Origin: an uncultured virus (IMG/VR IMGVR_UViG_3300027763_000054)
Lineage: Duplodnaviria; Heunggongvirae; Uroviricota; Caudoviricetes
Direction: 5' to 3' (one strand)
IMG/VR virus record: IMGVR_UViG_3300027763_000054
Length of the DNA stretch: 20,000 bases
Positions 3,381-19,700 of this stretch are shown in pieces (position 1 is the stretch's first letter; each line of letters opens with the position of its first letter). The position numbers and the translations under genes were made by a program. The notes beneath the pieces were generated by a model. That model saw nothing but the letters and a program-made list of their open reading frames with translations. It made no database searches and was not told the DNA's origin.

Positions 3381-3626
3381 ATGGGAAGTCTAACAGCTTA
3401 CTTTGAGAAGGATGCTTACCAGCCCAAATACTTTTTAGGTGATAGAGTATTTGGTCGTTGGAACAAGATACCTTTTATTGGTTCAGTGGGCAACGACACT
3501 GTGATCAGCTTAATCGAAGGCCCACGCATTTCAATACTGTTAGACCTACCTATTAAATTTAATGACCGCATACACAATGTCATTATAGTAAAACACAAAG
3601 ATATTAAACCATTGATTGAATTCTAA
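3381..3626 (+). CDS. hypothetical protein (81 aa)
   Basis: Starts 3 bp after the previous stop; its stop overlaps the convergent protease stop. Confidence 0.7.
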   Translation: MGSLTAYFEKDAYQPKYFLGDRVFGRWNKIPFIGSVGNDTVISLIEGPRISILLDLPIKFNDRIHNVIIVKHKDIKPLIEF

Positions 3627-4279
3627 GGTAAAGAAAAGGTCCACACATCGTAACCCTTTTCTTCCATGTAATCAAATGGTATCCAGCAGTATCCGTGATC
3701 TCCCCAAAATTTCCCAAAACTATTCTTAGCAAGTAATAATTTCTTGTCGAGGTCATAGCCTACCAGGCACATGGCATGTCCTGTTTTTTCATTGTTGGGA
3801 GTTGGCATTTGTATGACAGGATTTGTTATGCTGGTATATTGGAAATCGTTTGAAATAACAATCCCAAATACAACAGGCTGATTGCGATTTAAGGTTTCAA
3901 TTGTTTGTTCAATGTCCACAATTGATTTAACATTTGATATGTTACGAGAAACAGCATCTTTATAACAAGCATCAGGGGGTACGACATTAAATTTTTCAAT
4001 GTCGTACGGCCACAAGGACTCGGAACAAAGTCCAAATTTCTTAACACCATCTAATGCGTCGGATATAAAAGTACCAGTATCTTCTTCGACTGTGCCTGAT
4101 ATTAAACGAGCATTATAGTAGATGAAAAGTCGACTAATTTCAATAAAAGTTTTGGGTCTGTATTGCATGACCAACATCTCATAGGCATTTGAAATTGCAT
4201 TTGCACTACAACTACCTAGATAATATTGGTCTTCAACAACACCTGCACTTTCTCTTAAATCGACTTTAGATCGAATCAT
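3623..4279 (-). CDS. papain-like cysteine peptidase (C1A family), catalytic domain only
   Basis: VDLR...DQYYLGSCSANA (oxyanion Gln, catalytic Cys), SRLFIYYNAR, GHAMCLVGYD (His), KNSFGKFWGDHGY (Asn). No signal peptide. Confidence 0.92.
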   Translation of the reverse strand: MIRSKVDLRESAGVVEDQYYLGSCSANAISNAYEMLVMQYRPKTFIEISRLFIYYNARLISGTVEEDTGTFISDALDGVKKFGLCSESLWPYDIEKFNVVPPDACYKDAVSRNISNVKSIVDIEQTIETLNRNQPVVFGIVISNDFQYTSITNPVIQMPTPNNEKTGHAMCLVGYDLDKKLLLAKNSFGKFWGDHGYCWIPFDYMEEKGYDVWTFSLP

Positions 4280-4962
4280 TATGCTGTAAAGTAACCTGGG
4301 AATTGCTGTGTCAATCCAGTTGCAAATGCACTGATGAAAGAATTAGCACCGGCGGTAAGTTTTTCTCTAGCTGTTGTTTCAGCACTTGAATTCTTATCGT
4401 TCTTTGCTTTGATGAATTCTTTGAATCCGTCAAATACCTGAGTTAATACAGTTCTAACGTCACCAATTCTCCATAAATTATTATAGGTGTTTAGTAAGTT
4501 TGAAATGTCACTACTAACTTGGTAGTTCAACCGATCAGAAGGATCTTTAATATCATAATTGTTCTTGATATTTCTAGCAATAGTGAACATCAAGATTGCT
4601 AAAGTTCTAAAACCATAATTGAGTCTTTCGCCAAATTCAACGCCATAATATGATTTGGCAAATTCGCCAATTCCGTCAATTTGTGCCCAAAGTGTCTCTT
4701 CTGCTTTGGCAGCATTTTCTGAATCGTTGTTTAGGATATATCCAAGGACGTTCAGAAGGTTTGTATCAAACGTATCGAAATATGTTTGAAGCACTGATTT
4801 TAATTCAGCACTTGTCATTACGTTTGGAGCCTTTGGCGGCTTTACGTATTTGTTTTTCTTAACAACCGGGCCAATGGCAGGTTGATCTGCCATTGCTTGT
4901 TCTGCCAAAGCAGGATGGTTGTAGTGATGTTCTTCAATTGTATGTTTAATTACTTTATACAT
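4279..4962 (-). CDS. alpha-helical hypothetical protein, paralog of 9557-10252
   Basis: Shares N-term MYK..[SK]H.I.E.HY, central IG.F...YYG...G and C-term G...QFP..F with 9557-10252. Confidence 0.8.
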   Translation of the reverse strand: MYKVIKHTIEEHHYNHPALAEQAMADQPAIGPVVKKNKYVKPPKAPNVMTSAELKSVLQTYFDTFDTNLLNVLGYILNNDSENAAKAEETLWAQIDGIGEFAKSYYGVEFGERLNYGFRTLAILMFTIARNIKNNYDIKDPSDRLNYQVSSDISNLLNTYNNLWRIGDVRTVLTQVFDGFKEFIKAKNDKNSSAETTAREKLTAGANSFISAFATGLTQQFPGYFTA

Positions 4963-4996
4963 GATTTTTCCTTTAAATTAATTCTCTCAGAGAATA

Positions 4997-5614
4997 TTAG
5001 ATTATACGCCATCCGGCGCGAAATATTACTGTTATACTGGCATTAGAATTTAATGATTTGCTAGTGCTACCATCTATCTTTTCAAGTCCCGTGCCAATGA
5101 CGGTGGTACTACCACTGGCAGCTTCATTTTTAATAATATAAACTTTACCAGTTACACCTAATGGTAAAGTAACTATAGTCGGGTTAGCAGTAACACCAAT
5201 ATATCCATCACTTGCTGATGCTGTGTATGCCACTGCTGTACTGGTAGTTGTTTCAATACCAGGCTCTTGAACAGAAATAGTAACAGCACCAGTGCCGCCA
5301 CTTAATGTTACATTAGTACCTGCTATTAAACTGGTAACACCTGTGTTGTTGATTGTAAATGCCGAAGCCGGGCCTGTACTGGTTAAACTAGTAACACTAA
5401 TGCCAGTACCAGCAGTGGGTGTAATACCTGTTACCACTGAGTTACCATTTAATTTCAATGCCGAAGTAGCGTTAATGGTATCAAATGTAACTGATGCCGT
5501 AGTTGCTACACTCTGTGGTATAGATATAATGCCGTTAGCATCAACAGAGATATTTGAACCAACCTCTAGTACACCTTGTTCAGTTGTAGATCCTAATGGA
5601 AATAGATATGACAT
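4997..5614 (-). CDS. short fibre/adhesin-like protein (N-terminal beta-hairpin motif, shaft repeats, C-terminal head domain 'B')
   Basis: STTEQGVLEVGSNISVDANGIISI; repeats VTGITPTAGTGISV and VTSLIAGTNVTLS; head YTA..SDGYIGV..IVTLP...GKVYIIKN...IDG...W.II. Confidence 0.75.
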   Translation of the reverse strand: MSYLFPLGSTTEQGVLEVGSNISVDANGIISIPQSVATTASVTFDTINATSALKLNGNSVVTGITPTAGTGISVTSLTSTGPASAFTINNTGVTSLIAGTNVTLSGGTGAVTISVQEPGIETTTSTAVAYTASASDGYIGVTANPTIVTLPLGVTGKVYIIKNEAASGSTTVIGTGLEKIDGSTSKSLNSNASITVIFRAGWRII

Positions 5615-5626
5615 TTTGTCTTCCTT

Positions 5627-6106
5627 TTATAAAATGTTCCATCGTGAACTGTCAAACACGAGTATAAACCCAGCGTCAGTTCCTAATGTTTTAAAACTAC
5701 TGCCATCTATGGTTTCGCTTCCGTTGCCCTGAACCTTGCAATTGCCAGGCGCCTGATTTTTTACATAGTAGACTCTACCAAGCTCTCCTTTGGGTAATGT
5801 TAGTGTTATATTATTAGTCGTAGCACCAACATAATAGTCATCTTCTGTGATGGTGTAATTTACACTGGTTAATTTAACCTTTACTTTTTTACAACAATCA
5901 TCTTCACCACCTGTTACTGATAATACACCCTTGGGTGTAATAGACAAACCGCTGCCAACTTGAACAACGCCAAGACTGGTAGTACTGGCTTCCTCACAAT
6001 CTAATGTTACTGGAACGATGCCAGCTGGTTGGATTACAGCTGGCGGTGGATTTTGCTTTAGTGCTTTCCCCGCCAATACTGTTTGTGGTAGTCTATTGTA
6101 GGCCAT
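5627..6106 (-). CDS. short fibre/adhesin-like protein (beta-hairpin motif + DDCC + head domain 'B')
   Basis: ASTTSLGVVQVGSGLSITPKGVLSV; YTITEDDYYVG..ITLTLP..GRVYYVKN...TIDG...WNIL. Confidence 0.75.
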   Translation of the reverse strand: MAYNRLPQTVLAGKALKQNPPPAVIQPAGIVPVTLDCEEASTTSLGVVQVGSGLSITPKGVLSVTGGEDDCCKKVKVKLTSVNYTITEDDYYVGATTNNITLTLPKGELGRVYYVKNQAPGNCKVQGNGSETIDGSSFKTLGTDAGFILVFDSSRWNIL

Positions 6107-6115
6107 ATTAAATTA

Positions 6116-6517
6116 TTATAAAACCAACCATTGTGTACCGTTATACACAAATGTCAATGAACCATATGGCGCATTAATAACTGCTGTTGCGGCACCATCA
6201 ATGGTACCGGCAGTTGGTGTGATAGTAATTGGTGTTGCTGGCGCGGCCAAACCTAGACCATCTTTGATTGTAAATGACTGGCCGGTTACGCCCGCTGGCA
6301 ATGTTACTGCTACAGCAACTGGTCCTGGTACTTGAATGCTGACGATATCATCTGTTGCGGCTACTACAGTTACTGGTGTAGCCACAGCATTTCTAATTGC
6401 AACAATTGGTACACCGCTTGCGCTAATTGTAACTACCTCGGCACCGGTGCCTGTTGTTGGTGTTACTGTGATACCTGCTCCGGCAAGTATCGAGCGTGGA
6501 TTATTTGTATATGACAT
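6116..6517 (-). CDS. short fibre/adhesin-like protein (one shaft repeat + head domain 'B')
   Basis: SILAGAGITVTP; TDDIV..VTLPAG.TGQSFTIKDGLG.A...PITI....TIDG....IN.PYGS....YNGTQWLVL; AAGGAG SD. Confidence 0.75.
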   Translation of the reverse strand: MSYTNNPRSILAGAGITVTPTTGTGAEVVTISASGVPIVAIRNAVATPVTVVAATDDIVSIQVPGPVAVAVTLPAGVTGQSFTIKDGLGLAAPATPITITPTAGTIDGAATAVINAPYGSLTFVYNGTQWLVL

Positions 6518-6549
6518 GTTATGTCTCCTTTAATTAAATGCGTGGAAGA

Positions 6550-6924
6550 TCATGATATAGTCTTCCAATTTGTGCCGTCATACACTACCTGTATATGACT
6601 GTATCCACCATTGAGAATCGCAAAGGAAACACCATTAATGGTTTTGCCTCCGGCACTCGTAATAGTAATTGGATTCGTTTGAGCCGTCCCAGAATAATCT
6701 TTTATATAAAAACTACGCTGTAATACAACTGTGTTCGGGTTATTATCATCGTCGTCGTGAGTTTTATCTTTATTACCACAGCAGTCTTCACCAGTGGCAT
6801 TTCCGTTTGCTGGTAGTATCACTGAAGCTGGACCCGATGTTATATTGATGAAAACTACTTCATCTGTTGTTAGTATGTTATACGGTGTTGTTGTGACTAT
6901 TTTGGTGTTTAAATTTAATGACAT
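6550..6924 (-). CDS. stand-alone head domain 'B' protein with an acidic/Cys-Cys insertion
   Basis: PYNILTTDEVV..VILP [NGNATGEDCCGNKDKTHDDDDNN] ..FYIKDYSG.A.TNPITI....TING...YDGTNWKTI. Confidence 0.75.
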   Translation of the reverse strand: MSLNLNTKIVTTTPYNILTTDEVVFINITSGPASVILPANGNATGEDCCGNKDKTHDDDDNNPNTVVLQRSFYIKDYSGTAQTNPITITSAGGKTINGVSFAILNGGYSHIQVVYDGTNWKTIS

Positions 6925-6934
6925 AATATTTTCC

Positions 6935-7507
6935 TTAACTGATTCTGGTCAGTGTAATTTTTGCACTAAAGCCACTTGGGCGAATTGGTGTTATTGCGGC
7001 TGGCAACGCCACCAAACTTACTGTGGCGTCTGGGCTACTCCAACACATTTCGATGCTACTGCCTGCTGCCATATCCAATGTAAAATTACCGCTTACAAAC
7101 AGTTCACTGAGCGTGTTAATTAATTGTAGTTCCTGTCTTGATCCTGGCAGGTCAGCGTTGTTATATCGTAGCCAAATACTAATGCTACTTGTACCACCAG
7201 CTGTTTTGTTTAGAATCACTGTGAACTGTTTGTTATAGACTCCGGCGTTGGCTACAACTATCTGCGTTGGATCTCCAACCAATACACTTACTCCATTGGT
7301 AGGATTTGGTGGATTTGGTGTCACATCAAAAGTTATAAGATTAATAAGATTGGCACCAGCACTATTCTGCGTGGTGCTACTGGAGACAAATCCATAGTTG
7401 AGTAGGCCGGTACTGCCAGATATCACACCATCAGTAATACTGATGCCTGCGCCAACTTTGACAATGCCAAAGTCTGTGGTCGATGATAATGGTGCTTTGT
7501 ATGACAT
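6935..7507 (-). CDS. fibre-like protein with a C1q/TNF-like (BclA C-terminal-like) head
   Basis: N-term SSTTDFGIVKVGAGISITDGVIS; head YG...S.TTQ..ITFD...IVVANAGVYNKQF...IWLRYN...FTLDMAAGSSIEMCW...ITLTRI. Confidence 0.7.
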   Translation of the reverse strand: MSYKAPLSSTTDFGIVKVGAGISITDGVISGSTGLLNYGFVSSSTTQNSAGANLINLITFDVTPNPPNPTNGVSVLVGDPTQIVVANAGVYNKQFTVILNKTAGGTSSISIWLRYNNADLPGSRQELQLINTLSELFVSGNFTLDMAAGSSIEMCWSSPDATVSLVALPAAITPIRPSGFSAKITLTRIS

Positions 7508-7516
7508 TGTATTCCT

Positions 7517-8071
7517 TTACAATTGAACTATAGTGCATCTAACACTAGGTGTTGCTGGTCTACTCGGTAGAATCTGTGCTACATTTGCCAACAGTTGCAT
7601 AGCGGTATCGAGACTTTGCCAAGCAATCTCTACAACGTCTCCGGCACTAAGCGCCAGCGTATAATTCCACGCTGCCAATAACGGTTCATTGGTAGTGTTA
7701 AGAGTTAGCGTAGTATTAGTATCTGGATAGTTTAGACTGTTTCTTAAAATCCAAATATCTATTTGATCCAATCCAGCATCCGTTTTGTCTATCTGTGCAG
7801 TAAATTGTAAATTGTAGTTGGCAGTTTTACTTACTTGTATCTGTGACGCTGTTAACAATGTTATACCAACATTAATGGCAGCATTATTAAATGTCATTTT
7901 ATTAACAGCACTGGCCACTGGATTTGTTTGTGTTATTGTACTGTAAAAATATGCTTGGTCAAACAGAGCAATTGGTGTTACATTTAATACCCCATTAGAT
8001 ATAGTCAGGTTAGTGCCTGGCTGTATCATACCTGGAGTACTAGCAGTAGCCAATGGTTCTCTATATGACAT
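7517..8071 (-). CDS. fibre-like protein with a C1q/TNF-like (BclA C-terminal-like) head, paralog of 6935-7507
   Basis: Start MSYREP at 8071 (TAATG overlap); AYFYSTITQ..MTFN...IQVSKTANYNLQF...IWILRN...LALSAGDVVEIAW...TIVQL. Confidence 0.7.
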   Translation of the reverse strand: MSYREPLATASTPGMIQPGTNLTISNGVLNVTPIALFDQAYFYSTITQTNPVASAVNKMTFNNAAINVGITLLTASQIQVSKTANYNLQFTAQIDKTDAGLDQIDIWILRNSLNYPDTNTTLTLNTTNEPLLAAWNYTLALSAGDVVEIAWQSLDTAMQLLANVAQILPSRPATPSVRCTIVQL

Positions 8072-8520
8072 TAGACAATATTCCATTCTGTTCCATTAAA
8101 GATGAATTGTAAACTGCCATAGTTAACATTAATCGTAGCAGTACTAGCATCAACTAATTCACCACCAGTGCCTTGAATAGTAATTGGATTGTTTGCCGCA
8201 TCGCCAAAGCAATCTTTAACTATATAAACCGTGCCTAGTATGCCTGCGGGTAATGTAATTGTGACTACGCCATTGGTCAACACACATAAAAAATAATCAG
8301 TTGGCAGTGCTGTATACGTTGCAGTAGCAACATCTGTGACAGCTACTGGACTGGGATTACCTGCTGGTCCTGGAGGTCCAGGAGGTCCCGGTGGACCTAC
8401 ACCACCTCCACCATTTACATAAATGCTACCTGGTCCGCTTTCGTTGTACACCGGCGCAATTGGCCGAAAAATTGGTCTAATTATTCTCCTAATAATCGGT
8501 CGTCTATAAAAATGCATCAT
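8071..8520 (-). CDS. collagen-like (GPP) short fibre with an Arg-rich N-terminus and head domain 'B'
   Basis: ATGA overlap with the upstream stop at 8517-8520; RRPIIRRIIRPIFRP; GPPGPPGPPGPAG; YTALPTDYFL..TITLPAG..GTVYIVKD..G.A.NNPITI...INVNYGS...FNGTEWNIV. Confidence 0.8.
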   Translation of the reverse strand: MMHFYRRPIIRRIIRPIFRPIAPVYNESGPGSIYVNGGGGVGPPGPPGPPGPAGNPSPVAVTDVATATYTALPTDYFLCVLTNGVVTITLPAGILGTVYIVKDCFGDAANNPITIQGTGGELVDASTATINVNYGSLQFIFNGTEWNIV

Positions 8521-9041
8521 CGTATTGCCCATGTTGATTTAAACTGGTCAATCTTGGCCAGCACTGGAGGAATCATTTTTTCAAATATTTTCCCCTCATT
8601 TTTGTTCTTAACTTCTACATCTTCTGCAACAGGCTCTACAGGTACAGGACTAATTTGCGTTACTTCATGGTCAACCACTGGTTCAACGCTAACTGGTACC
8701 AATTCATCAGTTAATTTTGTTTCTTCAATAATTGGTTTTACTTCTTGTGGTTTAACACTTACAATGGTTGCTTCATCATTCTTCACCACATTAGGTTCTT
8801 TTTGTACTGGCCCATTTAAAAATTCACCAAGTGCCGTGGCACGAGTAACAATATCTACTTCTGTGGGATAATGCGGGAATGGTGGATATGCTAGCTTGAT
8901 GCCGCGAGTTCGCCAAGCAACATCGGCCTCGGATAGCCAACGATTATGATCTTGCGCTCGTTTATCAATATATTCGTTAATAACAAGTTCTCTTGCCATG
9001 CGAAGAAGTTCAAGTCTTGATGTTACATTATTGTTACTCAT
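8517..9041 (-). CDS. hypothetical protein; N-terminal domain paralogous to 12811-13047, followed by an acidic Pro/Val-rich tail
   Basis: RLELLRMARELV...P.FP.YPTEVDIVTRA..L.EFLN versus RLELLKMSKEML...F.PFPTEEEIIKKA..LNEFIN; GGAG SD. Confidence 0.8.
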   Translation of the reverse strand: MSNNNVTSRLELLRMARELVINEYIDKRAQDHNRWLSEADVAWRTRGIKLAYPPFPHYPTEVDIVTRATALGEFLNGPVQKEPNVVKNDEATIVSVKPQEVKPIIEETKLTDELVPVSVEPVVDHEVTQISPVPVEPVAEDVEVKNKNEGKIFEKMIPPVLAKIDQFKSTWAIR

Positions 9042-9050
9042 TGATTCTCC

Positions 9051-9302
9051 TCATCTAAGTTTATCTAAAGCAATTACTGCTATGGTTGCAAAACTGGATA
9101 ATACAGCAACCGCAATAGTAATAACTTTGGCCATAAATTTCTTCTCTTCTTGAAGTTCATTTTTTATTTTTCTAATTTCTTCATCATACTCTGCCAATTG
9201 CTGTTCATAACTCAAATGACGAGCAATGCCAAGCTCTACATGAACTGCTAGATTTTCTTTTTCTATTTCTTCTATGTTGTCAAGTTTTTCAAATTCTTTC
9301 AT
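9051..9302 (-). CDS. coiled-coil protein with a C-terminal TM helix, paralog of 9299-9553
   Basis: IEKENLAVHVE motif; hydrophobic VITIAVAVLSSFATIAVIAL; ends DKLR. Confidence 0.75.
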   Translation of the reverse strand: MKEFEKLDNIEEIEKENLAVHVELGIARHLSYEQQLAEYDEEIRKIKNELQEEKKFMAKVITIAVAVLSSFATIAVIALDKLR

Positions 9303-9553
9303 TTTATTTTATCCACTAATAAAATTGCCGCAGGTATTAATACTGCAAGTAATGTACCTCCGGCGACCATGGTTTGTATAACACTTTGCCTAGTAGAATC
9401 ATTTTCTATAACAAAGTGATCAATTTCTTTTTCAACAGCGTCAATACGATGCTCCAGTGCATTATATCGTTGTATAGAAATTTCCACATGCGCGGCCAAG
9501 TTTTCTTTTTCAATGTTGTCTGGGCTAGGAATAGTTGTTCGTGTTACAATCAT
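9299..9553 (-). CDS. coiled-coil protein with a C-terminal TM helix
   Basis: IEKENLAAHVE..QRYNALE; hydrophobic MVAGGTLLAVLIPAAILLV; ends DKIK. Confidence 0.75.
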   Translation of the reverse strand: MIVTRTTIPSPDNIEKENLAAHVEISIQRYNALEHRIDAVEKEIDHFVIENDSTRQSVIQTMVAGGTLLAVLIPAAILLVDKIK

Positions 9554-9556
9554 ATT

Positions 9557-10252
9557 TTATACCGTAAATGATAATGGAAATTGTGCAATAACTCCTCTGC
9601 TGAGAACATCAGCAAGACTGGTATAGCCGCGATTAATATGATTAGGAATACCAGTGATTACTAACTTGCTTATGTTGTCTAAACTAATGGCGTCAGCTGA
9701 TTCATCAGATGCAAATCTTGCTTTAATATTATCTGTCCAATATGCGGCCAAATTGGTAAACATATCTACTAAAAGTTCTTTAGGGAAATTTGATGGGTTT
9801 AATTCATTTAGATAATCTGCCAATTCATTGATTGGACTGATCCATAGTGTTCTAAATTGATTCAAGTCTTTTCCGTTTTGCACAGTGTGTATTGTGTCAA
9901 TGCCAATCCTAGCATACGCGGCAAGCAATGCACCAATTTTATAGCCTGCAGTCATTCCATAATATGGAACAAAAAAATCACCAATAGAGCTTGCTGCCTT
10001 GATTAGTCGTCCTTCGACTTGGCCAGCAGAATCAAGTTTGCCTTGCCTGGCAACAGAAAGATTTACCAATCCTAGAGCAAACTTTGTCCATATTGTTCTG
10101 GAATCCATGCGAAATGTCAATGTTGATTCATTTATTACAAATGTAGGCAACGGACCCGTAAATGGTTGTGCTGGGATGTCAATGCTACCTGCACTAGGTG
10201 GCACCACACCATAATGTTCTTCTTGTATATTATGTGAAACTCGTTTATACAT
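9557..10252 (-). CDS. alpha-helical hypothetical protein, paralog of 4279-4962
   Basis: R.IW...; IGDFFVPYYG..AG.KI..LL; W....ELADYL..LNP; LAD....GVIAQFP..F. Confidence 0.8.
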   Translation of the reverse strand: MYKRVSHNIQEEHYGVVPPSAGSIDIPAQPFTGPLPTFVINESTLTFRMDSRTIWTKFALGLVNLSVARQGKLDSAGQVEGRLIKAASSIGDFFVPYYGMTAGYKIGALLAAYARIGIDTIHTVQNGKDLNQFRTLWISPINELADYLNELNPSNFPKELLVDMFTNLAAYWTDNIKARFASDESADAISLDNISKLVITGIPNHINRGYTSLADVLSRGVIAQFPLSFTV

Positions 10253-10254
10253 AA

Positions 10255-10452
10255 TCAGTAGATATTAATTGGATTAGCAATTTGGTTAATTCCAGCGGCA
10301 ATTCCTGTATTTGTAACTGTCTGATTAGACAATTGACTTTGATATGCATTTATACCCAAGTAATTGTAGTATGGATTGTATGCTCCATAATATGGATATG
10401 GCATAATTGCACCAGGGCTCCTATAATAAGGATAATAGTAACTTCCAAACAT
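10255..10452 (-). CDS. Tyr/Pro-rich microprotein carrying the C-terminal motif of the 186/188 aa proteins
   Basis: MFGSYYYPYYRS..PYPYYGAYNPYYNY followed by INAYQSQLSNQTVTNTGIAAGINQIANPINIY; GGAG SD. Confidence 0.75.
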   Translation of the reverse strand: MFGSYYYPYYRSPGAIMPYPYYGAYNPYYNYLGINAYQSQLSNQTVTNTGIAAGINQIANPINIY

Positions 10453-10471
10453 TTAAATCTCCATGTTTATT

Positions 10472-10501
10472 AAAAAACAGGCTTGATAGACAAGCCTGTT
10501 T
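10472..10501 (-). terminator. intrinsic terminator inside the minus-strand operon
   Basis: 11-bp inverted repeat AAACAGGCTTG (10475-10485) / CAAGCCTGTTT (10491-10501) with a 5-nt loop; A6 at 10472-10477 is a U-tract on the minus strand. Confidence 0.75.
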
Positions 10502-10505
10502 ACTT

Positions 10506-10670
10506 TTACCAGTAGTAAGGGTAGCCGCCGTAGCCGCCATACCCACCGTAACCGTATCCACCATATGGTAGGCCAATGAAGCCTCCATAGTATGGGTAAC
10601 CGATTCCAGCGGCCAGGTAAGGACGTTGAAATCCTCCCCACCCTCTATAACCTAATCCATTAAAAAACAT
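10506..10670 (-). CDS. Gly/Tyr-rich 54 aa microprotein (not in ORF track)
   Basis: MFFNGLGYRGWGGFQRPYLAAGIGYPYYGGFIGLPYGGYGYGGYGGYGGYPYYW*; perfect AAGGAGG SD 7 nt upstream of the ATG; terminator directly downstream. Confidence 0.85.
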   Translation of the reverse strand: MFFNGLGYRGWGGFQRPYLAAGIGYPYYGGFIGLPYGGYGYGGYGGYGGYPYYW

Positions 10671-10686
10671 CTTTGTTCCTCCTTAA

Positions 10687-11253
10687 TCAACCAATGGTTG
10701 TTGGATTTGCAGACTGTACAGTACCTGCCATACTGTTGGTGTTGACTACTCGCTGTCCAGCAACTGAACTTTGAAATGCGTTAGTAGCATTAAAATTATC
10801 AGCTGTTTGTACAGCGGCATTTAACCCACCATATGCCAGGCCTAAACTTGCATAATTCAACCCACCACCAATTAAGGCAGTGTTTGTATTGATTAATGCG
10901 GTATTCAAGTTTTCTGTGTTTAGATCATTAATTAAATTACGATCACGTTCAGCTTGGCGCATTGCTTCTCGTTGAGTAGACATTGCTGTCAATCCAATTA
11001 TGGCATCAGTGCGACCTGCTGACAACATTGTTTCAAGAGTTTTCTTCGAAGCTGCCGCCTTAAGATCAGACTGAGCAGCCGCATTTCTTAATGCCACTTG
11101 CATGGCACGATTATTCACGTCTGCTGTTTGGGCTACCTGTAATTTGTAACCCTCAAATACGCTATCAGCTACCTTAGTTTTTGTTGATTCAATTTCTGTA
11201 GCCAATGCAAAGAATGGATCAATGGTGATAGTTGGAGTTGTTCCGTCAGCCAT
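10687..11253 (-). CDS. Ala/Thr/Asn/Gln-rich 188 aa protein, tandem paralog of 11267-11827; candidate major structural subunit
   Basis: Colinear with its paralog (DPF.AL..EIE.TKTKV.DS.FE.YKLQVAQT.D.NNRAMQVAL; LNT.NLNTALINTNTALIGGG.NYA.LGLAYGG.NAA); AGGAG SD. Confidence 0.85.
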   Translation of the reverse strand: MADGTTPTITIDPFFALATEIESTKTKVADSVFEGYKLQVAQTADVNNRAMQVALRNAAAQSDLKAAASKKTLETMLSAGRTDAIIGLTAMSTQREAMRQAERDRNLINDLNTENLNTALINTNTALIGGGLNYASLGLAYGGLNAAVQTADNFNATNAFQSSVAGQRVVNTNSMAGTVQSANPTTIG

Positions 11254-11266
11254 AGTATTCTCCTAA

Positions 11267-11827
11267 TTAACGAATTGTTGTTGGACTAGCTGTTTGTGTA
11301 GTACCAGTCATAGTACCAGTGTTAACTACGCCTTGTTGAGCTAATTGGCTTTGGAAAGCATTGATAGCACTTGTAGTGTTAGCACTTTGGTAAGCGGCAT
11401 TCACGCCACCGTATGCAAGACCAAGACCAGCATAATTTACGCCACCACCAATTAAGGCTGTATTTGTATTGATCAAAGCTGTGTTTAGATTTTGTGTGTT
11501 TAATGCGTTGATTAGACCACGTGTTAATTCGCCTTGTTCCATGATTGTGCGTTGAGTAGACATTGCTGTCTGTCCAATTGCGGCATCGGTACGAGCGGCA
11601 GCTAACATAGTCTGTAATGTACCATCAGCAACAGATTGCTTTAGGTCAGCCAATGCAGATGTGTCATGTAATGCCACTTGCATAGCACGGTTGTTGATGT
11701 CGTTTGTTTGAGCGACTTGTAGTTTGTAATTTTCGAAAATGCTATCAGAAACTTTGGTTTTTGTAGCTTCGATTTCTCTTGATAATGCGTAAAATGGGTC
11801 TAGCGTAAAGCTTGTCATATCAGCCAT
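11267..11827 (-). CDS. Ala/Thr/Asn/Gln-rich 186 aa protein; first structural gene of the island
   Basis: AGGAG SD; paralog of 10687-11253; C-term INAFQSQLAQQGVVNTGTMTGTTQTASPTTIR. Confidence 0.85.
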   Translation of the reverse strand: MADMTSFTLDPFYALSREIEATKTKVSDSIFENYKLQVAQTNDINNRAMQVALHDTSALADLKQSVADGTLQTMLAAARTDAAIGQTAMSTQRTIMEQGELTRGLINALNTQNLNTALINTNTALIGGGVNYAGLGLAYGGVNAAYQSANTTSAINAFQSQLAQQGVVNTGTMTGTTQTASPTTIR

Positions 11828-11844
11828 ATTATATCTCCTAGGAT

Positions 11845-11873
11845 GTTAAGAATGATTATCATTCATTCTTAAC
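11845..11873. promoter_or_regulatory. 11-bp inverted repeat enclosing a Fur-box-like core; candidate operator or 5'UTR hairpin
   Basis: GTTAAGAATGA-ttatcat-TCATTCTTAAC; minus strand 11851-11863 reads AATGATAATCATT. Confidence 0.5.
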
Positions 11874-11925
11874 TACTTAGAAGCAAAATCAGCTGATGCT
11901 ATATTGACATGGTCGACGGTCGACT

Positions 11926-12558
11926 TCAGTTAGAAAACAATGCTAACTGTGTTCTGTTTCTTACTTTATACTTTTTCAGGATACTGGTAATGTGAAGCTT
12001 AACTGTACTTTCGGTAATGTTAAGCATACGAGCAATGGACTTATTGCTAGCGCCACGTTGTTGTATAATGGTTAGGATTTCTCGCTGACGTGGCGTAAGT
12101 TGAATCTCATTGAGTGTTTTAATTTTAGGTTCGACGAGTTTCTGTATAGTTGGAGAAATATATACTATTCCAGTTTTTAAAGACAAAAAAATCTCGGATA
12201 AATGATCTAAATCATCTGATCCGAGTATGGCGTTTACATCGTCTCTGGCAATAGTTGATTTTATTTGTCTTATATTGGCGGAGTTATCAAATACTACTGC
12301 TACTTTTGGCCCAATGTTTTCTGGCATATATTTTTTAAAACAACAAATTACTGCCTTGGCAATGTGAAGATCATCAAATAATTGTGTGTAATTTTGTTTG
12401 TATAGATCACCTGAATCTAGGATTATTAAATTTGGATTATTATTTAACGATAGCTCGTCTAACACTTGATTAACGGTTGAGTAATACTCAACTGTCACCC
12501 CAATTGGTATGTGGGCCAGTGTATTTTTTGTTACAACTGCGGCCTTTAATTGGTTCAT
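11926..12558 (-). CDS. LuxR/NarL-family transcriptional regulator (degenerate receiver-like N-domain + GerE-type HTH)
   Basis: C-term LTPRQREIL....GASNKSIARMLNITESTVKLHITSILKKYKVRNRTQLA; N-term PNLIILD and YISP; AGGAG SD. Confidence 0.9.
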   Translation of the reverse strand: MNQLKAAVVTKNTLAHIPIGVTVEYYSTVNQVLDELSLNNNPNLIILDSGDLYKQNYTQLFDDLHIAKAVICCFKKYMPENIGPKVAVVFDNSANIRQIKSTIARDDVNAILGSDDLDHLSEIFLSLKTGIVYISPTIQKLVEPKIKTLNEIQLTPRQREILTIIQQRGASNKSIARMLNITESTVKLHITSILKKYKVRNRTQLALFSN

Positions 12559-12810
12559 AAATTTCTCCTATCATACATTTGTATGGTTTATATATTTTGT
12601 AAATCTTACTAAAATAATTATAAACATTTACCATGGAGAACACAATAGCAATGTACTATGTACGATAGTATATATTTGCTAAAAGTTGCTTTATGGCAAA
12701 ATGCGTTTGGTCATTGAACACATAGATGGTCGTACAAGTAAGTTCTGCGTTTATAATTAATTTTGTAGAACACAAGTTTTACGCACACACTCAAACACAG
12801 GAGAACTATA

Positions 12811-13047
12811 ATGAGTACAATTGCCCCTAACGGCTACACCATTCGTCTTGAACTACTCAAGATGTCAAAAGAAATGCTAGAGCAAGACTGGCATGCACAT
12901 CGCGAAGCGGTAATGACAGATTACCATACCAAAGCTTCAAAAGACGAAAATGTTGTACCACCTGCCCCAACCTTCAAACCTTTCCCTACCGAGGAAGAGA
13001 TTATCAAGAAGGCCAAGGTTCTAAACGAATTTATCAATACAAAATAA
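12811..13047 (+). CDS. hypothetical phage protein ('IRLELLKM' type), paralog of the 8517-9041 N-domain
   Basis: AGGAG SD after an ACAC-rich leader; motifs YTIRLELLKMSKEML and FPTEEEIIKKA. Confidence 0.8.
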   Translation: MSTIAPNGYTIRLELLKMSKEMLEQDWHAHREAVMTDYHTKASKDENVVPPAPTFKPFPTEEEIIKKAKVLNEFINTK

Positions 13048-13167: not shown

Positions 13168-13446
13168 ATGTTAAAGAAATTCGACGAAAACACAAAACAG
13201 TATAAATTGTTCAAAGCTTTGGTTATCAATGGTGAGTCATTGACAGAAGCCGCAATCCAAAAGCGTTTTGGCATCAAGAACCCAACTGCTACAATCAGCG
13301 TTATCCGTCAACGTGGTTATGCAGTTTATGCTAACCCACGTAAGGCAGGCAATGGCGTTCAAGTTACTGAGTATCGTCATGGTGAAGCCAGCCGCCGCAT
13401 GGTTGCTTTGGCATACAAGGCCCAAAGCATGGGCATCACAATCTAA
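13168..13446 (+). CDS. small winged-HTH-like DNA-binding protein
   Basis: GESLT.AAIQKRFGIKNPTATISVIRQRGYAVY...YR pattern, typical of phage wHTH proteins. Confidence 0.65.
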   Translation: MLKKFDENTKQYKLFKALVINGESLTEAAIQKRFGIKNPTATISVIRQRGYAVYANPRKAGNGVQVTEYRHGEASRRMVALAYKAQSMGITI

Positions 13447-13613: not shown

Positions 13614-14000
13614 ATGCGTAATTTTACTAAACAAGAGCACCTTAATAGCATTGATACAAATGACATTGGTGAGGGCATTGATGACTTTAGCGACCCAGAG
13701 CTCAACGAGGCTTTTGGTAAGTTTTGTATTATGGACGACCAGTGCGCCTACAATAACTTATTGGAAGACATGGGTTATGACGAAGATGAAATTGAAAACG
13801 AACATTGTACTATTGTACACGATACAGTGGTTGAGACTCTTAAGCAAGTGAACCTTGTGTTTAAGAACTTGGGCCTGGACTTGGAGTTTAAATCTGCAGA
13901 CATGGTGGAGCACGTGGCCTTCATGCTTACTGGCAAAGGTGATACACCCGAGGACATGGCCCACCGTATCCGCAGATTGGTTGACAACAAGCCTGTTTAA
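13614..14000 (+). CDS. acidic hypothetical protein (128 aa)
   Basis: GGGAG SD before ATG 13614; the ORF-track TTG start at 13554 is the -35 box. Confidence 0.75.
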   Translation: MRNFTKQEHLNSIDTNDIGEGIDDFSDPELNEAFGKFCIMDDQCAYNNLLEDMGYDEDEIENEHCTIVHDTVVETLKQVNLVFKNLGLDLEFKSADMVEHVAFMLTGKGDTPEDMAHRIRRLVDNKPV

Positions 14001-14009
14001 TAGTACAAT
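13981..14009 (+). promoter_or_regulatory. sigma70-type promoter
   Basis: TTGACA-17bp-TACAAT, starting inside the 3' end of the upstream gene. Confidence 0.8.
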
Positions 14010-14033
14010 AACATACACACAAAAGGAGTCCAA

Positions 14034-14360
14034 ATGATTACTCGTGATAACATGGTAGTTTACAAGAACATTGGCACTTACCACTTAGTAAGTGACGACG
14101 GTTATGATGAAGACACTGACTCGTGGTATGAGCCTTTTGAGCACTATGAGGTGCGCCACTTTTCAGGTCTAACTGTGACTGCTAGCTCAGTTAAAGAGTG
14201 CAAGAAATGCCTGGATGACTTTGAAGTTACCGCACAGGAGATCCGTGAGGCTATCAACAAGCTCGCCATTTACGGCTATCGTGTATTCAAAGAGCAAGAG
14301 TATTTTGACACCAGCACAGACCCCAACGGCCTAAAGGCATGGGTCCGGGATTTCGGTTGA
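14034..14360 (+). CDS. hypothetical protein (108 aa)
   Basis: AAGGAG SD and its own promoter. Confidence 0.8.
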   Translation: MITRDNMVVYKNIGTYHLVSDDGYDEDTDSWYEPFEHYEVRHFSGLTVTASSVKECKKCLDDFEVTAQEIREAINKLAIYGYRVFKEQEYFDTSTDPNGLKAWVRDFG

Positions 14361-14385
14361 CCTAAAACAGATTGTTTGCTATAAT
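14357..14385 (+). promoter_or_regulatory. sigma70-type promoter
   Basis: TTGACC-17bp-TATAAT with TG; the upstream gene's TGA lies within the -35. Confidence 0.85.
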
Positions 14386-14418
14386 ACTTGTATTGCAATT
14401 AAAAAGGAAGTTACCAAA

Positions 14419-14841
14419 ATGAAACACACTATCCTATTAGACAATGGTACCTACTTGCAGGTAAATGATTTGGGTTGGACCGAGCGTAAGACGCCACGGC
14501 AGTACAAAAGCCTAGCAGAAGCTCAGCATCATTTACAATGGGGCATTGCCATGTGCCACACCAATGTTAAACTTAGAACAGACTATATTGCAACCTATCA
14601 TCGAGATAAAACTAGATTTGAAAAAGCTGTTGCAAAAGAACAGGCCCTTATCAAACAGCTAGAGACACAACCTTATAACAAGGTAGCAGATCGTATTGTA
14701 CAAGCACACCATAATATTGATCAACTCACTGTCAAGTTTTATCCTGAAAGCCGCCTTAAGGATTTCAAACGTGATACCAAGTTCCTTGCAAGTGCCAAGC
14801 AGGTACTTGCCAACAACCCCAGGATCATTCCTTTAGGTTGA
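14419..14841 (+). CDS. hypothetical protein (140 aa)
   Basis: AAGGA SD and its own promoter. Confidence 0.75.
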   Translation: MKHTILLDNGTYLQVNDLGWTERKTPRQYKSLAEAQHHLQWGIAMCHTNVKLRTDYIATYHRDKTRFEKAVAKEQALIKQLETQPYNKVADRIVQAHHNIDQLTVKFYPESRLKDFKRDTKFLASAKQVLANNPRIIPLG

Positions 14842-15222: not shown

Positions 15223-17322
15223 ATGAAACTCAAAACACTTACCTTAGCTATCGCATTGGCTCTCTCTGCTGGCGCCAATGCACAAGTATTTGGCAACCAA
15301 GAAACTGTTGCTACAACAAGTTACCTCAAGGCAGTAGGTGCTCCACAAGCGTGGGCCCGCGGCTTTACAGGCAAGGGTATTATCATTGGTGTTGTTGACA
15401 ACGGCTTTGACTTAAAGCAAACAGACATTAAAAAGAATGTCCTAGCATTTGCAAACTTCAGTTCTACTGCTGTAGTGGTAGGTGTACATGGTACACAAAT
15501 GGCCAGTATTGCCGCAGGCGTAGCAGACGGCAATGGTACAGTTGGTGTTGCTCCAGATGCCAAGTTGGTCCTTGCACAAGCAAACAGTACTGTAAGTTCA
15601 TCAACTGGCTTAGCAGGCACAGGCATCAGCATGGCTTCAGTGCTTAAAGGTATGGCCTGGGCTGAAGCACAAGGTGCCAGCATTATTAATCTGAGCCTTG
15701 GTTCTACATACGATTCCACTTTCCAATCTAAGACTGTTATGATTGCCCCGGGCATTTACAATGCCCCTGATTCATACACAAACAAAATTGGTGGTCTTGA
15801 TTACTTGTATGGTTCATCTCTTAAAGATGTGGCGGCATTTGCTGGTACTACCAAGAACGCTGTCATTGTTGCCGCAAGTGGAAACTCTGCTACACCTTTT
15901 GCACAATTCCCGGGTGCGTATGCTACACAAACAGATGCCAATGGTAATCTATTGCTTGGCGGCCGTGTTATCATTGTTGGCAATGTCAAAGGCGACGGCA
16001 AGGGTGGTTGGATCATGAGTGAGACTAGTAGTGCGGCTGGTAGCTTATGCTCAAACATTGTTGCTAGTGTATGCCAAGACAAATACTATGTCAAAGATTT
16101 TTATGTTGTAGCACCAGGTACAGGTATCTTAGGTGCTATTCCCGACAGTGCCAGAACAGCCGCAAGTATCACAGCAGGTAAGACAAATGGTGTTGGTGGG
16201 GTCAGTGGTTCTAGTCCAGCGGCCGCCGTAGTGTCAGGTGGTATTGCACTGATGAAGCAAGCATGGCCTCAGTTAAGAGCCAATCAGCTTGTTTCTCTGG
16301 TATTGAATACTGCTACCCCATTGGGCGATAGTAATGTATATGGTAAGGGTATGGTGAACTTTGACAAGGCTACCCAACCAATGGGTCAGCTTACACTTGC
16401 CAACCTTACCAAACTTACTGGCAGTGGTATTACGGGTACAGCAGTTGTTGGTACAGGTATTGTTACAAGTGGTTCGTCAAGTTTAGGTACCAGCTCTGTG
16501 TTGCAGAACACCCAAGTTGTAGACACCATAGGACGCAACTATACAGTTGACATGACAAAGGCAGTTGGTTACAACAATGCACTAAGTTACCAATATGGTA
16601 CACCTTGGATGGCTTTTGGTGGTTCAAACTATCGACAGGTTGTTACACCAGTTGGTCGAGATGGCTTGCTGTCAATCATGGCCAGTGACTCAGGTTCGTC
16701 TAGTCAATACGAATGGCAACAGACTGATGATACTCGTTTGAGCATCGAGGTAGGTGCATTGTCAGAACGCAATGGCTTCTTAGGTACACATGGTGGTGGA
16801 GCAATGTCGTTTGGCGGATCTAATACTGCATGGACCGGCCTTGGCTTTAGCAAGAACATTGTTGGTAGTACAAACTTAATTGGTAGTTATACAGTTGGCT
16901 TGACTCGCACAGGCAATGTTCAAGGCAGCATGGTTCAACTTGACTCTAGCGTAATTGCTGACTCATGGAAGCTGGGTGTAGCACAAAGTAATTTGGCGTT
17001 CAGCGGCAAGACTAAGGATACATTAAGCCTTACAGTAGCATCACCTGTGGCAGTACGTAAAGGTTCAGCTACAGTTATGGGTGTAACAGGTTACACCTAT
17101 ACTGACAATGCAGATGGTACAACAGATGCCAATCCAGTTATGCAAACAGAACGTGTGAGCCTGGCTCCCAAGGCACGTGAAATGAACTTGGTACTGGGCT
17201 ATACTGTAACACAAAATAACACGTCATCAATTGGTGTTAACGTAGTTAGACAGTTCAACGCAGGCGGACAAGCTGGCGTACAAGGCACAGGCGTATCAAT
17301 TATGGCACGTAGCGTATTTTAA
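15223..17322 (+). CDS. secreted subtilisin-like (S8) serine peptidase with a beta-rich C-terminal domain
   Basis: Sec signal MKLKTLTLAIALALSAGANA; Asp GVVDNG, His HGTQMASIAAG, INLSLG, oxyanion AASGN, VVAPG, Ser SGSSPAAAVVSG; C-terminal amphipathic strands ending in Phe. Confidence 0.9.
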   Translation: MKLKTLTLAIALALSAGANAQVFGNQETVATTSYLKAVGAPQAWARGFTGKGIIIGVVDNGFDLKQTDIKKNVLAFANFSSTAVVVGVHGTQMASIAAGVADGNGTVGVAPDAKLVLAQANSTVSSSTGLAGTGISMASVLKGMAWAEAQGASIINLSLGSTYDSTFQSKTVMIAPGIYNAPDSYTNKIGGLDYLYGSSLKDVAAFAGTTKNAVIVAASGNSATPFAQFPGAYATQTDANGNLLLGGRVIIVGNVKGDGKGGWIMSETSSAAGSLCSNIVASVCQDKYYVKDFYVVAPGTGILGAIPDSARTAASITAGKTNGVGGVSGSSPAAAVVSGGIALMKQAWPQLRANQLVSLVLNTATPLGDSNVYGKGMVNFDKATQPMGQLTLANLTKLTGSGITGTAVVGTGIVTSGSSSLGTSSVLQNTQVVDTIGRNYTVDMTKAVGYNNALSYQYGTPWMAFGGSNYRQVVTPVGRDGLLSIMASDSGSSSQYEWQQTDDTRLSIEVGALSERNGFLGTHGGGAMSFGGSNTAWTGLGFSKNIVGSTNLIGSYTVGLTRTGNVQGSMVQLDSSVIADSWKLGVAQSNLAFSGKTKDTLSLTVASPVAVRKGSATVMGVTGYTYTDNADGTTDANPVMQTERVSLAPKAREMNLVLGYTVTQNNTSSIGVNVVRQFNAGGQAGVQGTGVSIMARSVF

Positions 17323-18991: not shown

Positions 18992-19068
18992 GCGGGATTA
19001 GCTCAGTTGGTAGAGGCGAGTGCTTGCCAAGCACTAGGTCGTCAGTTCGAAACTGATATCCCGCTCCA
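18992..19068 (+). tRNA. tRNA-Gly(GCC)
   Basis: Acceptor GCGGGAT/ATCCCGC, anticodon arm AGTGC-TTGCCAA-GCACT, T-loop GTTCGAA, encoded CCA; one extra G after the D-stem. Confidence 0.9.
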
Positions 19069-19100
19069 AATAAAATATTTTTAAAAGTTTCAAAAAGTAG

Positions 19101-19129
19101 TAGACAAGACATAGGTTTTGTCATATAAT
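19101..19129 (+). promoter_or_regulatory. sigma70-type promoter
   Basis: TAGACA-17bp-TATAAT. Confidence 0.7.
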
Positions 19130-19207
19130 AGAAACATACTGTAGCAGTACAGTAAAAGGATAAAAGTAAGTGTTGTAAAAATACAACAAAGAAATTTCAA
19201 AAAGTGG

Positions 19208-19236
19208 TTGACATAGAAGCGAAAGCAGTATATAAT
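19208..19236 (+). promoter_or_regulatory. sigma70-type promoter for the tRNA array
   Basis: TTGACA-17bp-TATAAT; palindrome TGTTGTAAAAATACAACA at 19171-19188. Confidence 0.9.
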
Positions 19237-19303
19237 AACCACTTAACAGCAAGAAATCATTGTGTTACTTGCTAAGAGTTCTTTTACAATTTAGCGGCAT
19301 TGT

Positions 19304-19378
19304 GCTCGATTCGTCTATCGGTTAGGACGCTGGCCTTTCACGCCGGAAAGAGGGGTTCGATTCCCCTATCGAGTACCA
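19304..19378 (+). tRNA. tRNA-Glu(TTC)
   Basis: Acceptor GCTCGAT/ATCGAGT, anticodon arm CTGGC-CTTTCAC-GCCGG, T-arm AGGGG-TTCGATT-CCCCT, CCA. Confidence 0.93.
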
Positions 19379-19522
19379 TTTGTTTAGTGTTATCAAGGTA
19401 TCGTGTATGGACGCATACACTATGCGGGCCTAATCCGCCGGAAAAAGGTCCTAACATAACTGCATCGGCTTTGACCGGGAAGCACCCGACGTCTAAATTT
19501 GCACGATAGCACTAAACAAATG
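19379..19522 (+). ncRNA. putative structured ncRNA (~145 nt) between tRNA-Glu and tRNA-Leu
   Basis: 18-bp closing stem 19377-19394 / 19505-19522 (one G-U) enclosing internal hairpins. Confidence 0.55.
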
Positions 19523-19530
19523 CATTATAT

Positions 19531-19616
19531 GCGAGTATGGAGAAATTGGTAGACTCAAGAGACTTAAAATCTCTCGCTGTAATGGCATCCCGGTTCGACC
19601 CCGGGTACTCGCACCA
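19531..19616 (+). tRNA. tRNA-Leu(TAA)
   Basis: Acceptor GCGAGTA/TACTCGC, anticodon arm AGAGA-CTTAAAA-TCTCT, long variable arm, CCA. Confidence 0.93.
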
Positions 19617-19623
19617 AGTTTTA

Positions 19624-19700
19624 GGAGTGGTAGTTCAGTTGGTTAGAATACCGGCCTGTCACGCCGGGGGTCGCGGGTTCGAGTCCCGTCCACTCCGCCA
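19624..19700 (+). tRNA. tRNA-Asp(GTC)
   Basis: Acceptor GGAGTGG/CCACTCC, anticodon arm CCGGC-CTGTCAC-GCCGG, T-loop GTTCGAG, CCA. Confidence 0.95.

Follow-up and report, generated by a model that had tools for sequence, protein, structure and literature searches.

What does a giant phage make from a compact run of genes that is read against its neighbours? This question is raised by an 18-gene block on the minus strand, at 3623-12558 of a 20,000-nucleotide stretch of DNA (the whole of which is called the window here) from the uncultured caudoviricete of IMG/VR record IMGVR_UViG_3300027763_000054. The carrier is a giant freshwater phage, and the block, whose genes are called g1 to g18 in reading order, is optional. 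It belongs to a cassette that is real and widespread, and undescribed in the literature searched (the supplementary gene tables of metagenomic phage papers, which lay outside the search, could mention these genes). The best-supported new result is a regulatory switch, in which the LuxR-type protein g1 would act on a variant T4-type late promoter ahead of the first coiled-coil gene. Our preferred explanation, to which we give a probability of roughly 0.5, is that the cassette is an accessory, switchable late module which makes, under certain conditions only, a material of filaments and matrix that bears knobbed fibres. The evidence read from the sequences consists of synteny, optional presence, domain folds, shared tails, the promoter variant, an operator-like box and a terminator.

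A preliminary description of the window had claimed an island of 18 tightly packed genes, and all of these open reading frames were found in the order given there. Coding sequence takes up 8646 of the 8936 bases, intergenic gaps range from -4 to 98, and the pairs g7/g8, g9/g10, g10/g11 and g17/g18 overlap; from the alignments, g10 probably begins at 8520 and g11 at 8071. Curated Pfam cut-offs were passed only by g1 (LuxR HTH, PF00196, 5.7e-16) and g18 (Peptidase_C1, PF00112, 2.8e-14), which agrees with the LuxR regulator and C1A protease named earlier.

At E 0.001 or better, 776 homologues of the g2 protein were found, and 43 viral loci found in the g2 search share largely the same gene order (the near group). 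Searching 1.84 billion representatives with a profile returned 102 matches, many of them longer proteins with a related C-terminal tail; the near and distant g2 groups align with a probability of 99.6, and 53 of the 61 further viral loci of the distant group have a collagen-XD1-type match nearby. Thus, the genes co-occur in other genomes, and the block is syntenic in other contigs of T4-like jumbo phages, a point that the preliminary description had proposed to check. Complete carrier records measure 258, 385 and 400 kb, the 258-kb one being cyanophage-like with psbA, and genes for a T4-type capsid or for gp55 were found in the carriers tested. The carriers are classed as T4-like jumbo phages, with cyanophage-like ones among them.

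The features on which the regulatory argument turns are the following.
12615..12622, minus strand: candidate g1 promoter, TATAATTA, without an operator at the family spacing; matrix score -5.6.
11926..12558, minus strand: g1, a NarL/LuxR-type HTH with a degenerate receiver-like N-terminal domain; putative cassette activator.
11923..11930, minus strand: operator-like box, overlapping the g1 stop; the late-promoter motif lies 49 nt downstream.
11874..11881, minus strand: variant T4-type late promoter, TCTAAGTA, 54 nt ahead of the g2 start.
11845..11873, minus strand: 11-bp hairpin where the g2 mRNA is predicted to begin, z -3.44.

Upstream of the first coil gene, the motif T.TAA.TA occurred in 28 of 36 regions, compared with 6.0 +/- 2.1 in shuffles and 8 in antisense, and it is usually followed on its 3' side by a hairpin. 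As in T4-type late promoters, a TATAAATA-like 8-bp box is followed by an AT-rich start region; gp55 was found in five of five records tested, all other than the window's genome and three of them cassette carriers. For the comparison of promoters, 80 of the 102 loci and the window were retained, after duplicates, short flanks and undetermined LuxR status had been dropped. The results showed that the first coil gene carries the one-base variant TAA[G/C]TA in 46 of 49 loci with a LuxR gene and TAAATA in the other three, whereas the LuxR-less loci (n=32) have TAAATA in 25, the variant in four and neither in three. In the ordinary structural-region genes of two relatives, TAAATA was present in 12/32 and 10/45 upstream regions.

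T4 late promoters are described, in the text available of PMC2988020, as having no upstream element and an activator that is not bound site-specifically. The LuxR cassettes depart from this in having a box at a fixed spacing: it lies at -52..-46 in 32 of 49 LuxR loci and in none of 29 LuxR-less loci. Across loci, the box lies anywhere from -5 to 628 from the LuxR stop, whereas its spacing to the promoter is fixed; it is therefore tied to the promoter and not to the end of the LuxR gene. As an independent test, an operator-promoter matrix trained on g2 promoters only was scored on the promoters of the LuxR genes themselves. Scores above 5 at the exact offset were obtained for 21 of 42 (17 of 35 with unbiased site choice), compared with at most three at any other offset and 0/103 ordinary TAAATA sites; four LuxR genes had no candidate promoter site. 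The box upstream of 21 of 42 LuxR genes thus suggests that LuxR proteins regulate themselves by positive feedback in many relatives.

The best solved match of g1 was NarL (2.3e-12). No Response_reg was found among the matches listed for its receiver region and all NCBIfam models stayed below cut-off; in the relatives' alignment, read by eye, the phosphorylation residues (Asp, Thr/Ser, Lys) are not conserved. The LuxR proteins of two loci, of 382 and about 536 aa (L015, 7862-9010; L017, 8084-9694), seem to contain repeated receiver-like domains. A conserved, structured-looking leader of about 245 nt separates the coil gene from the canonical late promoter in L132 (7750-8000) and related LuxR-less loci; no Rfam family was found in the structured leaders of six LuxR-less loci.

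A wider regulon was sought with a strict operator-promoter pattern, which matched once each in records G026 and G027, both times at the cassette; it missed three other carriers, matched once in a non-carrier and gave similar counts in controls, so this search was insensitive. No LuxR-controlled T4-type late promoter was described in the literature searched, supplementary tables being outside that search. The conditional expression put forward earlier is supported by the variant promoter, the box and the matrix test. As to its sign, activation is favoured over repression because the box lies upstream and because the promoter departs from consensus in the loci that have LuxR. A late promoter switched by g1 is, in our judgement, likely.

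The genes read from this promoter, up to and just beyond the terminator, are as follows.
11267..11827, minus strand: g2, a long helix (3.64-residue periodicity) with a conserved polar C-terminal tail of about 28 residues; core protein.
10687..11253, minus strand: g3, a g2 paralogue (68%).
10506..10670, minus strand: g4, a 54-aa Gly/Tyr peptide (35% G, 24% Y), the final gene ahead of the terminator.
10475..10501, minus strand: intrinsic terminator-like hairpin, dividing the operon into putative bulk and minor tiers.
10255..10452, minus strand: g5, a Tyr-rich peptide with the same C-terminal tail as g2/g3; the tails co-vary.

The claimed paralogy of two proteins was borne out by g2 and g3, and the claimed terminator 3' of g4 has a folding energy of -15.9 kcal/mol (z -3.45). 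Of 33 near loci, 28 have a terminator on the 3' side of the Gly/Tyr gene, compared with at most one per control gene, and the Gly/Tyr peptide lies ahead of it, in the bulk tier, in 33 of 34. From this conservation, we infer that the terminator separates genes expressed in bulk (coils and Gly/Tyr peptide) from minor ones, a two-tier layout that favours a bulk material. Many of the terminator hairpins in L006-L036 share a loop-side CTCA(C/A)AAG, possibly a protein-binding or antitermination site.

The predicted structure of g2 is a single helix (11-163) with a disordered tail, at a pTM of 0.31, and was for this reason kept out of the fold search. The g2-family profile had no meaningful match in the PDB (best E 0.12), and the core protein belongs to no known family and lacks a solved relative. 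A likeness of the tail to GerPA, and of g2 to a gut-phage coiled-coil family, was not supported by any such Pfam or PHROG match. The tail of g5 is that of g2/g3, and across near loci coil and peptide tails co-vary (73.3 vs 59.3 +/- 2.05, n=21, kinship uncorrected). Gene content was counted in the 62 of the 80 retained loci that have 7 kb downstream: XD1 was found in 54, collagen-XD1 in 50, a Tyr peptide in 47, LuxR in 38, g9 in 34, the hook motif in 34, the protease in 33, a helical protein in 28, g7/g8 in 19 and C1q in 18. A fibre match was missing in eight, and three loci consist of coil, LuxR, Tyr peptide and g9 alone. The coil gene thus defines the cassette family (its universality follows by construction, as loci were picked through it), fibres are optional, and by these counts the non-coil genes are clearly dispensable. 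That the bulk product is a filament-plus-matrix material has, in our estimate, about even odds.

The seven fibre genes are these.
8071..8520, minus strand: g10, Arg/Pro-rich leader, short collagen, gp9/XD1 head.
7517..8071, minus strand: g11, N-terminal MSYxxP motif, shaft repeat, probable C1q/TNF-like head.
6935..7507, minus strand: g12, a g11 paralogue (32%).
6550..6924, minus strand: g13, a gp9/XD1 head alone, with a Cys-Cys/acidic insert.
6116..6517, minus strand: g14, MSY motif, shaft, gp9/XD1 head.
5627..6106, minus strand: g15, MAY..P motif, shaft repeat, gp9/XD1-type head.
4997..5614, minus strand: g16, MSYLFP motif, shaft repeats, gp9/XD1-type head.

Seven mini-fibres had been claimed, and seven fibre genes were found; the collagen repeats held only for g10, and five of the seven heads (g10, g13, g14, g15 and g16) turned out to be of the T4 gp9/XD1 type. 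The claimed Cys-Cys pair is present in g13, in a variable insert, and was seen in two of seven distinct g13 relatives (62 residues shown). The g14 head matched TSP4 80-175, the XD1 fold of T4 gp9 and TSP4, with Z 13.1 and rmsd 1.7 over 91 residues, a tailspike C-terminus with Z 11.5 and rmsd 1.6 over 84, and the C-terminal part of the Pa223 capsid spike with Z 9.4 and rmsd 2.4 over 88. It therefore aligns to XD1 and not to the gp10-like XD2/XD3; the text available of PMC8825819 assigns docking to XD2/XD3 and calls the role of XD1 unclear, a spacer.

The profile of g11/g12 gave three PDB matches, all weak: 9h38 (E 0.019) and two exosporium proteins (E 0.026 and 0.16). Matches of g11 were found in ten deposited phage records, at 25-37% identity over the head, two of them annotated C1q/cerebellin. 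These matches weakly suggest C1q-like heads. An N-terminal M[SA]Y motif is common to g11, g12, g14, g15 and g16, and in L016, which has no g10, a g10-type leader and collagen are fused directly to a g12 head. A predicted complex of three g10 heads with three copies of g11 residues 1-40 scored 0.01 and was uninformative either way. In L015 (12270-13427), the cassette fibre slot is occupied by an ice-binding domain (PF11999, 1.6e-28) with a g10-like leader. Against a contig of run X3, g16 showed 105 differences in about 500 bases, compared with 16 in about 2000 for flank, g18 and g17.

The remaining genes of the block are listed here.
9557..10252, minus strand: g6, helical-bundle protein of a family misnamed acetylglutamate kinase/glycosyltransferase in Bacillota; His triad lost.
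9299..9553, minus strand: g7, short coiled coil with a C-terminal transmembrane segment.
9051..9302, minus strand: g8, g7-like, with a C-terminal transmembrane segment.
8517..9041, minus strand: g9, 'RLELL' protein, homologue of the plus-strand gene 12811-13047.
4279..4962, minus strand: g17, second helical-bundle protein, with an N-terminal MYKxIxHxIxEEH motif common to g6.
3623..4279, minus strand: g18, papain-like C1A protease with Gln18, Cys24, His168 and Asn186.

The paralogues g6 and g17 (21% identity) match the misnamed Bacillota helical family with a probability of 98.9 and an Atlas TM of 0.72-0.78; against the PDB their profile gave generic helical matches only. A metal-enzyme role was rejected, the His triad being kept in one of 49 aligned members. 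Three cellular g6 relatives had no cassette context around them. In L015, the N-terminal motif of g6/g17 recurs on a 60-aa ORF (11037-11219) and inside an unrelated protein (13923-14453), a placement that suggests a portable tag. The C-terminal hydrophobic segments of g7 and g8 had KD19 values of 2.45 and 2.49. The g9 protein is 30% identical over 73 aa (pairwise E 2e-9) to the product of 12811-13047 (plus strand), a short homologue just outside the island that is kept in relatives without it. In g18, which scored above the PF00112 cut-off, the catalytic set is intact.

The preliminary description had also proposed to ask whether the block is gained or lost as a unit, and it was found to be absent from the same site in relatives. 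Among 80 loci fetched with the flanking gene 13168-13446, none had g2-g18 and one had a g1-like gene; in 11 of the 80, left- and right-flank genes lie close together, and in L056 the homologues of the two bordering genes are adjacent. DNA similarity to island-less flank relatives ends near 12749. The g2 family was found in 0/16 flank-linked records larger than 100 kb, compared with 5/5 positive controls (completeness reaches at least 99% in three of the 16, all of them distant, and 86% in the closest large one). Two DNA runs besides the possible source have contigs crossing the left junction; no RNA run was listed as carrying the island, no joint skipping the whole island was found among the matches listed for run X3, and the coverage gap of that run at 6671-7337 is uninformative. 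A tblastn search of 50,697 deposited phage records found no match to g2, g6 or g14, to two distant relatives of g2 or to one helical relative, and no carrier in culture turned up in these searches. Two cellular-genome loci (L044 and L045), from one Chitinophagales MAG (metagenome-assembled genome) among 185,579 genomes, carry the same cassette; they are probably phage contigs in the bin, and a possible hint at the host.

The flanking genes with family matches are on the plus strand, and the flanks have two near-consensus sigma-70 sites. They hold HD hydrolase, AAA/polynucleotide kinase-like and metallophosphoesterase genes in series (149-1712), a 699-aa subtilase (15223-17322; PF00082, 2.4e-28) that is kept in many flank relatives and has a long C-terminal region and what looks like a signal peptide, and four tRNA genes (Gly, Glu, Leu and Asp; 18992-19700). 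The psbA-bearing carrier L132 has a glutamine riboswitch (3716-3764), a group I intron (14580-14782) and a PhotoRC-II RNA (15815-15906).

Put together, our explanation runs as follows. The g1 protein would bind the box, which lies some 50 nt ahead of the weakened gp55-type late promoter, and switch that promoter on; in many relatives it would act at its own promoter too, giving an all-or-none switch. The transcript would yield much g2/g3 coiled coil and g4 Gly/Tyr peptide and, by read-through, less of g5-g18. The coils may assemble through their shared polar tail, with g5 joining by the same tail, and the Tyr/Gly peptides may glue the filaments into a matrix on which short trimeric fibres with gp9/XD1 or C1q knobs would be minor, exchangeable adhesive tips; g18 may process, mature or dissolve the material. 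As claimed earlier, no N-terminal hydrophobic stretch suggested a signal peptide, by hydropathy only. Without export signals, the product would leave the cell only at lysis, so that it most likely travels with virions; it would end on or around the progeny and aid sticking, clumping or persistence in water. More tentatively, and here we are rather doubtful, T4-like jumbo phages including cyanophages may encode an occlusion- or hair-like protein material in which progeny virions are embedded or bundled; in many lineages a self-reinforcing activator, specific to a site at a gp55 late promoter, would control it, so that a fraction of infections would release a protected or sticky dispersal form.

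Several points weigh against this explanation. The whole case is built on sequence and predicted structure. The box pattern was written after LuxR loci had been inspected, and the window's own g1 promoter fails the matrix at -5.6. The LuxR label changes eight times on the tree of loci, and the link between promoter and LuxR comes down to six independent pairs (4.2 the same way, 0.3 opposite; sign-test median p 0.125). LuxR-less cassettes would be constitutively late, like ordinary virion parts, and gp9/XD1 knobs and collagen are also found in virion spikes and fibres. The kinship-uncorrected co-variation of the tails was not detectable within the distant clade (n=6). In L168 and L189, no other cassette family was seen beside the coil gene, which fits a simple fibritin-like whisker.

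This last reading, which we consider somewhat unlikely, takes the products for optional stoichiometric virion whiskers: g2/g3 would be fibritin-like trimeric coils whose tail folds or anchors them, the mini-fibres would chain onto these coils by their N-terminal hooks, and the phage would have a second, regulated virion morph. A late promoter ahead of the first coil gene, heads matching T4 gp9, TSP4 and the Pa223 capsid spike, the common M[SA]Y motif on five fibres, the fusion in L016 and coil genes standing alone all fit it. A low-complexity Gly/Tyr peptide placed ahead of the terminator in 33 of 34 near loci does not, and in 19 of 62 loci a collagen-XD1 protein was found but no hook protein; the text available of PMC8825819 moreover calls what XD1 does unclear, a spacer. 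We regard as improbable a structure of the infected host, intracellular or at the cell surface, in which a membrane-anchored filament scaffold or coat would stabilise the virocell, delay release or clump cells. The transmembrane anchors of g7/g8, the sensor-like N-terminal domain of the regulator and the lack of signal peptides by hydropathy speak for it, but g7/g8-type genes occur in just 19 of 62 loci, and adhesive-type knobs and an ice-binding domain would serve a purpose only once outside the cell, which the product would leave only at lysis. An ordinary branched tail-fibre or receptor-binding module without special regulation is very unlikely. Weak PHROG matches to baseplate and tail-fibre families point that way, as does the variability of the fibre genes, the highest in the block (g16, run X3 contig); yet the heads are XD1 and not the XD2/XD3 docking domains, there is no tailspike body, the block lies on the opposite strand in a variable region and is absent from complete relatives, and it has its own promoter variant and its own operator.

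In the current view, the late genes of T4-type phages come on together through the sliding clamp, with no regulator that acts at particular sites. If our explanation is correct, an operator-bearing weakened late promoter and a DNA-binding factor would leave a lytic phage the choice of building a structure or not; the operator-promoter is short enough to be open to in vitro test without phage culture. With a bulk fibre-matrix product, aquatic phages would have a new means of clumping, attachment or persistence; the core protein of the cassette belongs to no known family, in spite of 776 homologues and its presence in complete phages of 258-400 kb.

The preliminary description had likened the block to spore coats and exosporia. 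Homology to the proteins of these structures was not supported. No Pfam or NCBIfam coat or exosporium-leader model matched, and five heads proved to be a phage-virion domain; for g10-g16, NCBIfam at E 0.05 gave no match, including the exosporium leader TIGR03720. The only links to Bacillota are the weak C1q-type matches (E 0.019-0.16) and the misnamed helical family. Other comparisons are T4 fibritin, with a long coiled coil and a short conserved C-terminal tail as in g2, and keratin filaments with Gly/Tyr-rich matrix proteins for a material of coils and peptides. The baculovirus occlusion body and p10 fibrils, which we take as an analogy only, combine very-late bulk expression, a dedicated activator, a coiled-coil fibril protein and a protease; no homology to them was found, nor was such a phage body in the literature searched. 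With T4 late transcription (gp55, gp33, gp45), the cassette shares the 8-bp TATA-like box followed by AT-rich DNA, and gp55 in carriers; it differs in the variant box and the fixed-spacing upstream site, present or absent with the LuxR gene.

Hair-like accessory fibres are known on the jumbo virions PTm1, Y3, CBB and Atu_ph07 (PMC13282480, PMC7824862); in the text available of these papers, 'collagen' is absent from both and 'LuxR' from PMC7824862. Like the cassette, the F-ENA system of endospore appendages (F-Anchor, F-ENA, F-BclA) has a leader-collagen-head anchor, small proteins with a hook-like N-terminal motif and C1q-like tips, as described in the part available of PMC12357932. The cassette differs in its gp9/XD1 head (DUF4183 had no Pfam match in the window heads, and fold searches placed the g14 head with gp9/XD1), in its hook (M-[SA]-Y-x(1-3)-P, compared with M-P-h-h-x-P-h in F-ENA), in having no exosporium leader, and in a core coil and Tyr peptides without counterpart there; F-ENA was not listed among fold-search matches, which does not exclude kinship. 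With the branched receptor-binding complexes (T4 gp9/gp10, CBA120 TSP4, KP32 RBP1/RBP2) it shares the gp9/XD1 fold and conserved N-terminal peptides on partner fibres. Those complexes dock by XD2/XD3 or a gp10-like branching domain (available text of PMC8825819 and PMC13352976), whereas the cassette XD1 is C-terminal, without an enzymatic body, and its fibres are optional. By analogy, the cassette may work like F-ENA or like branched fibres, although it lacks defining features of both.

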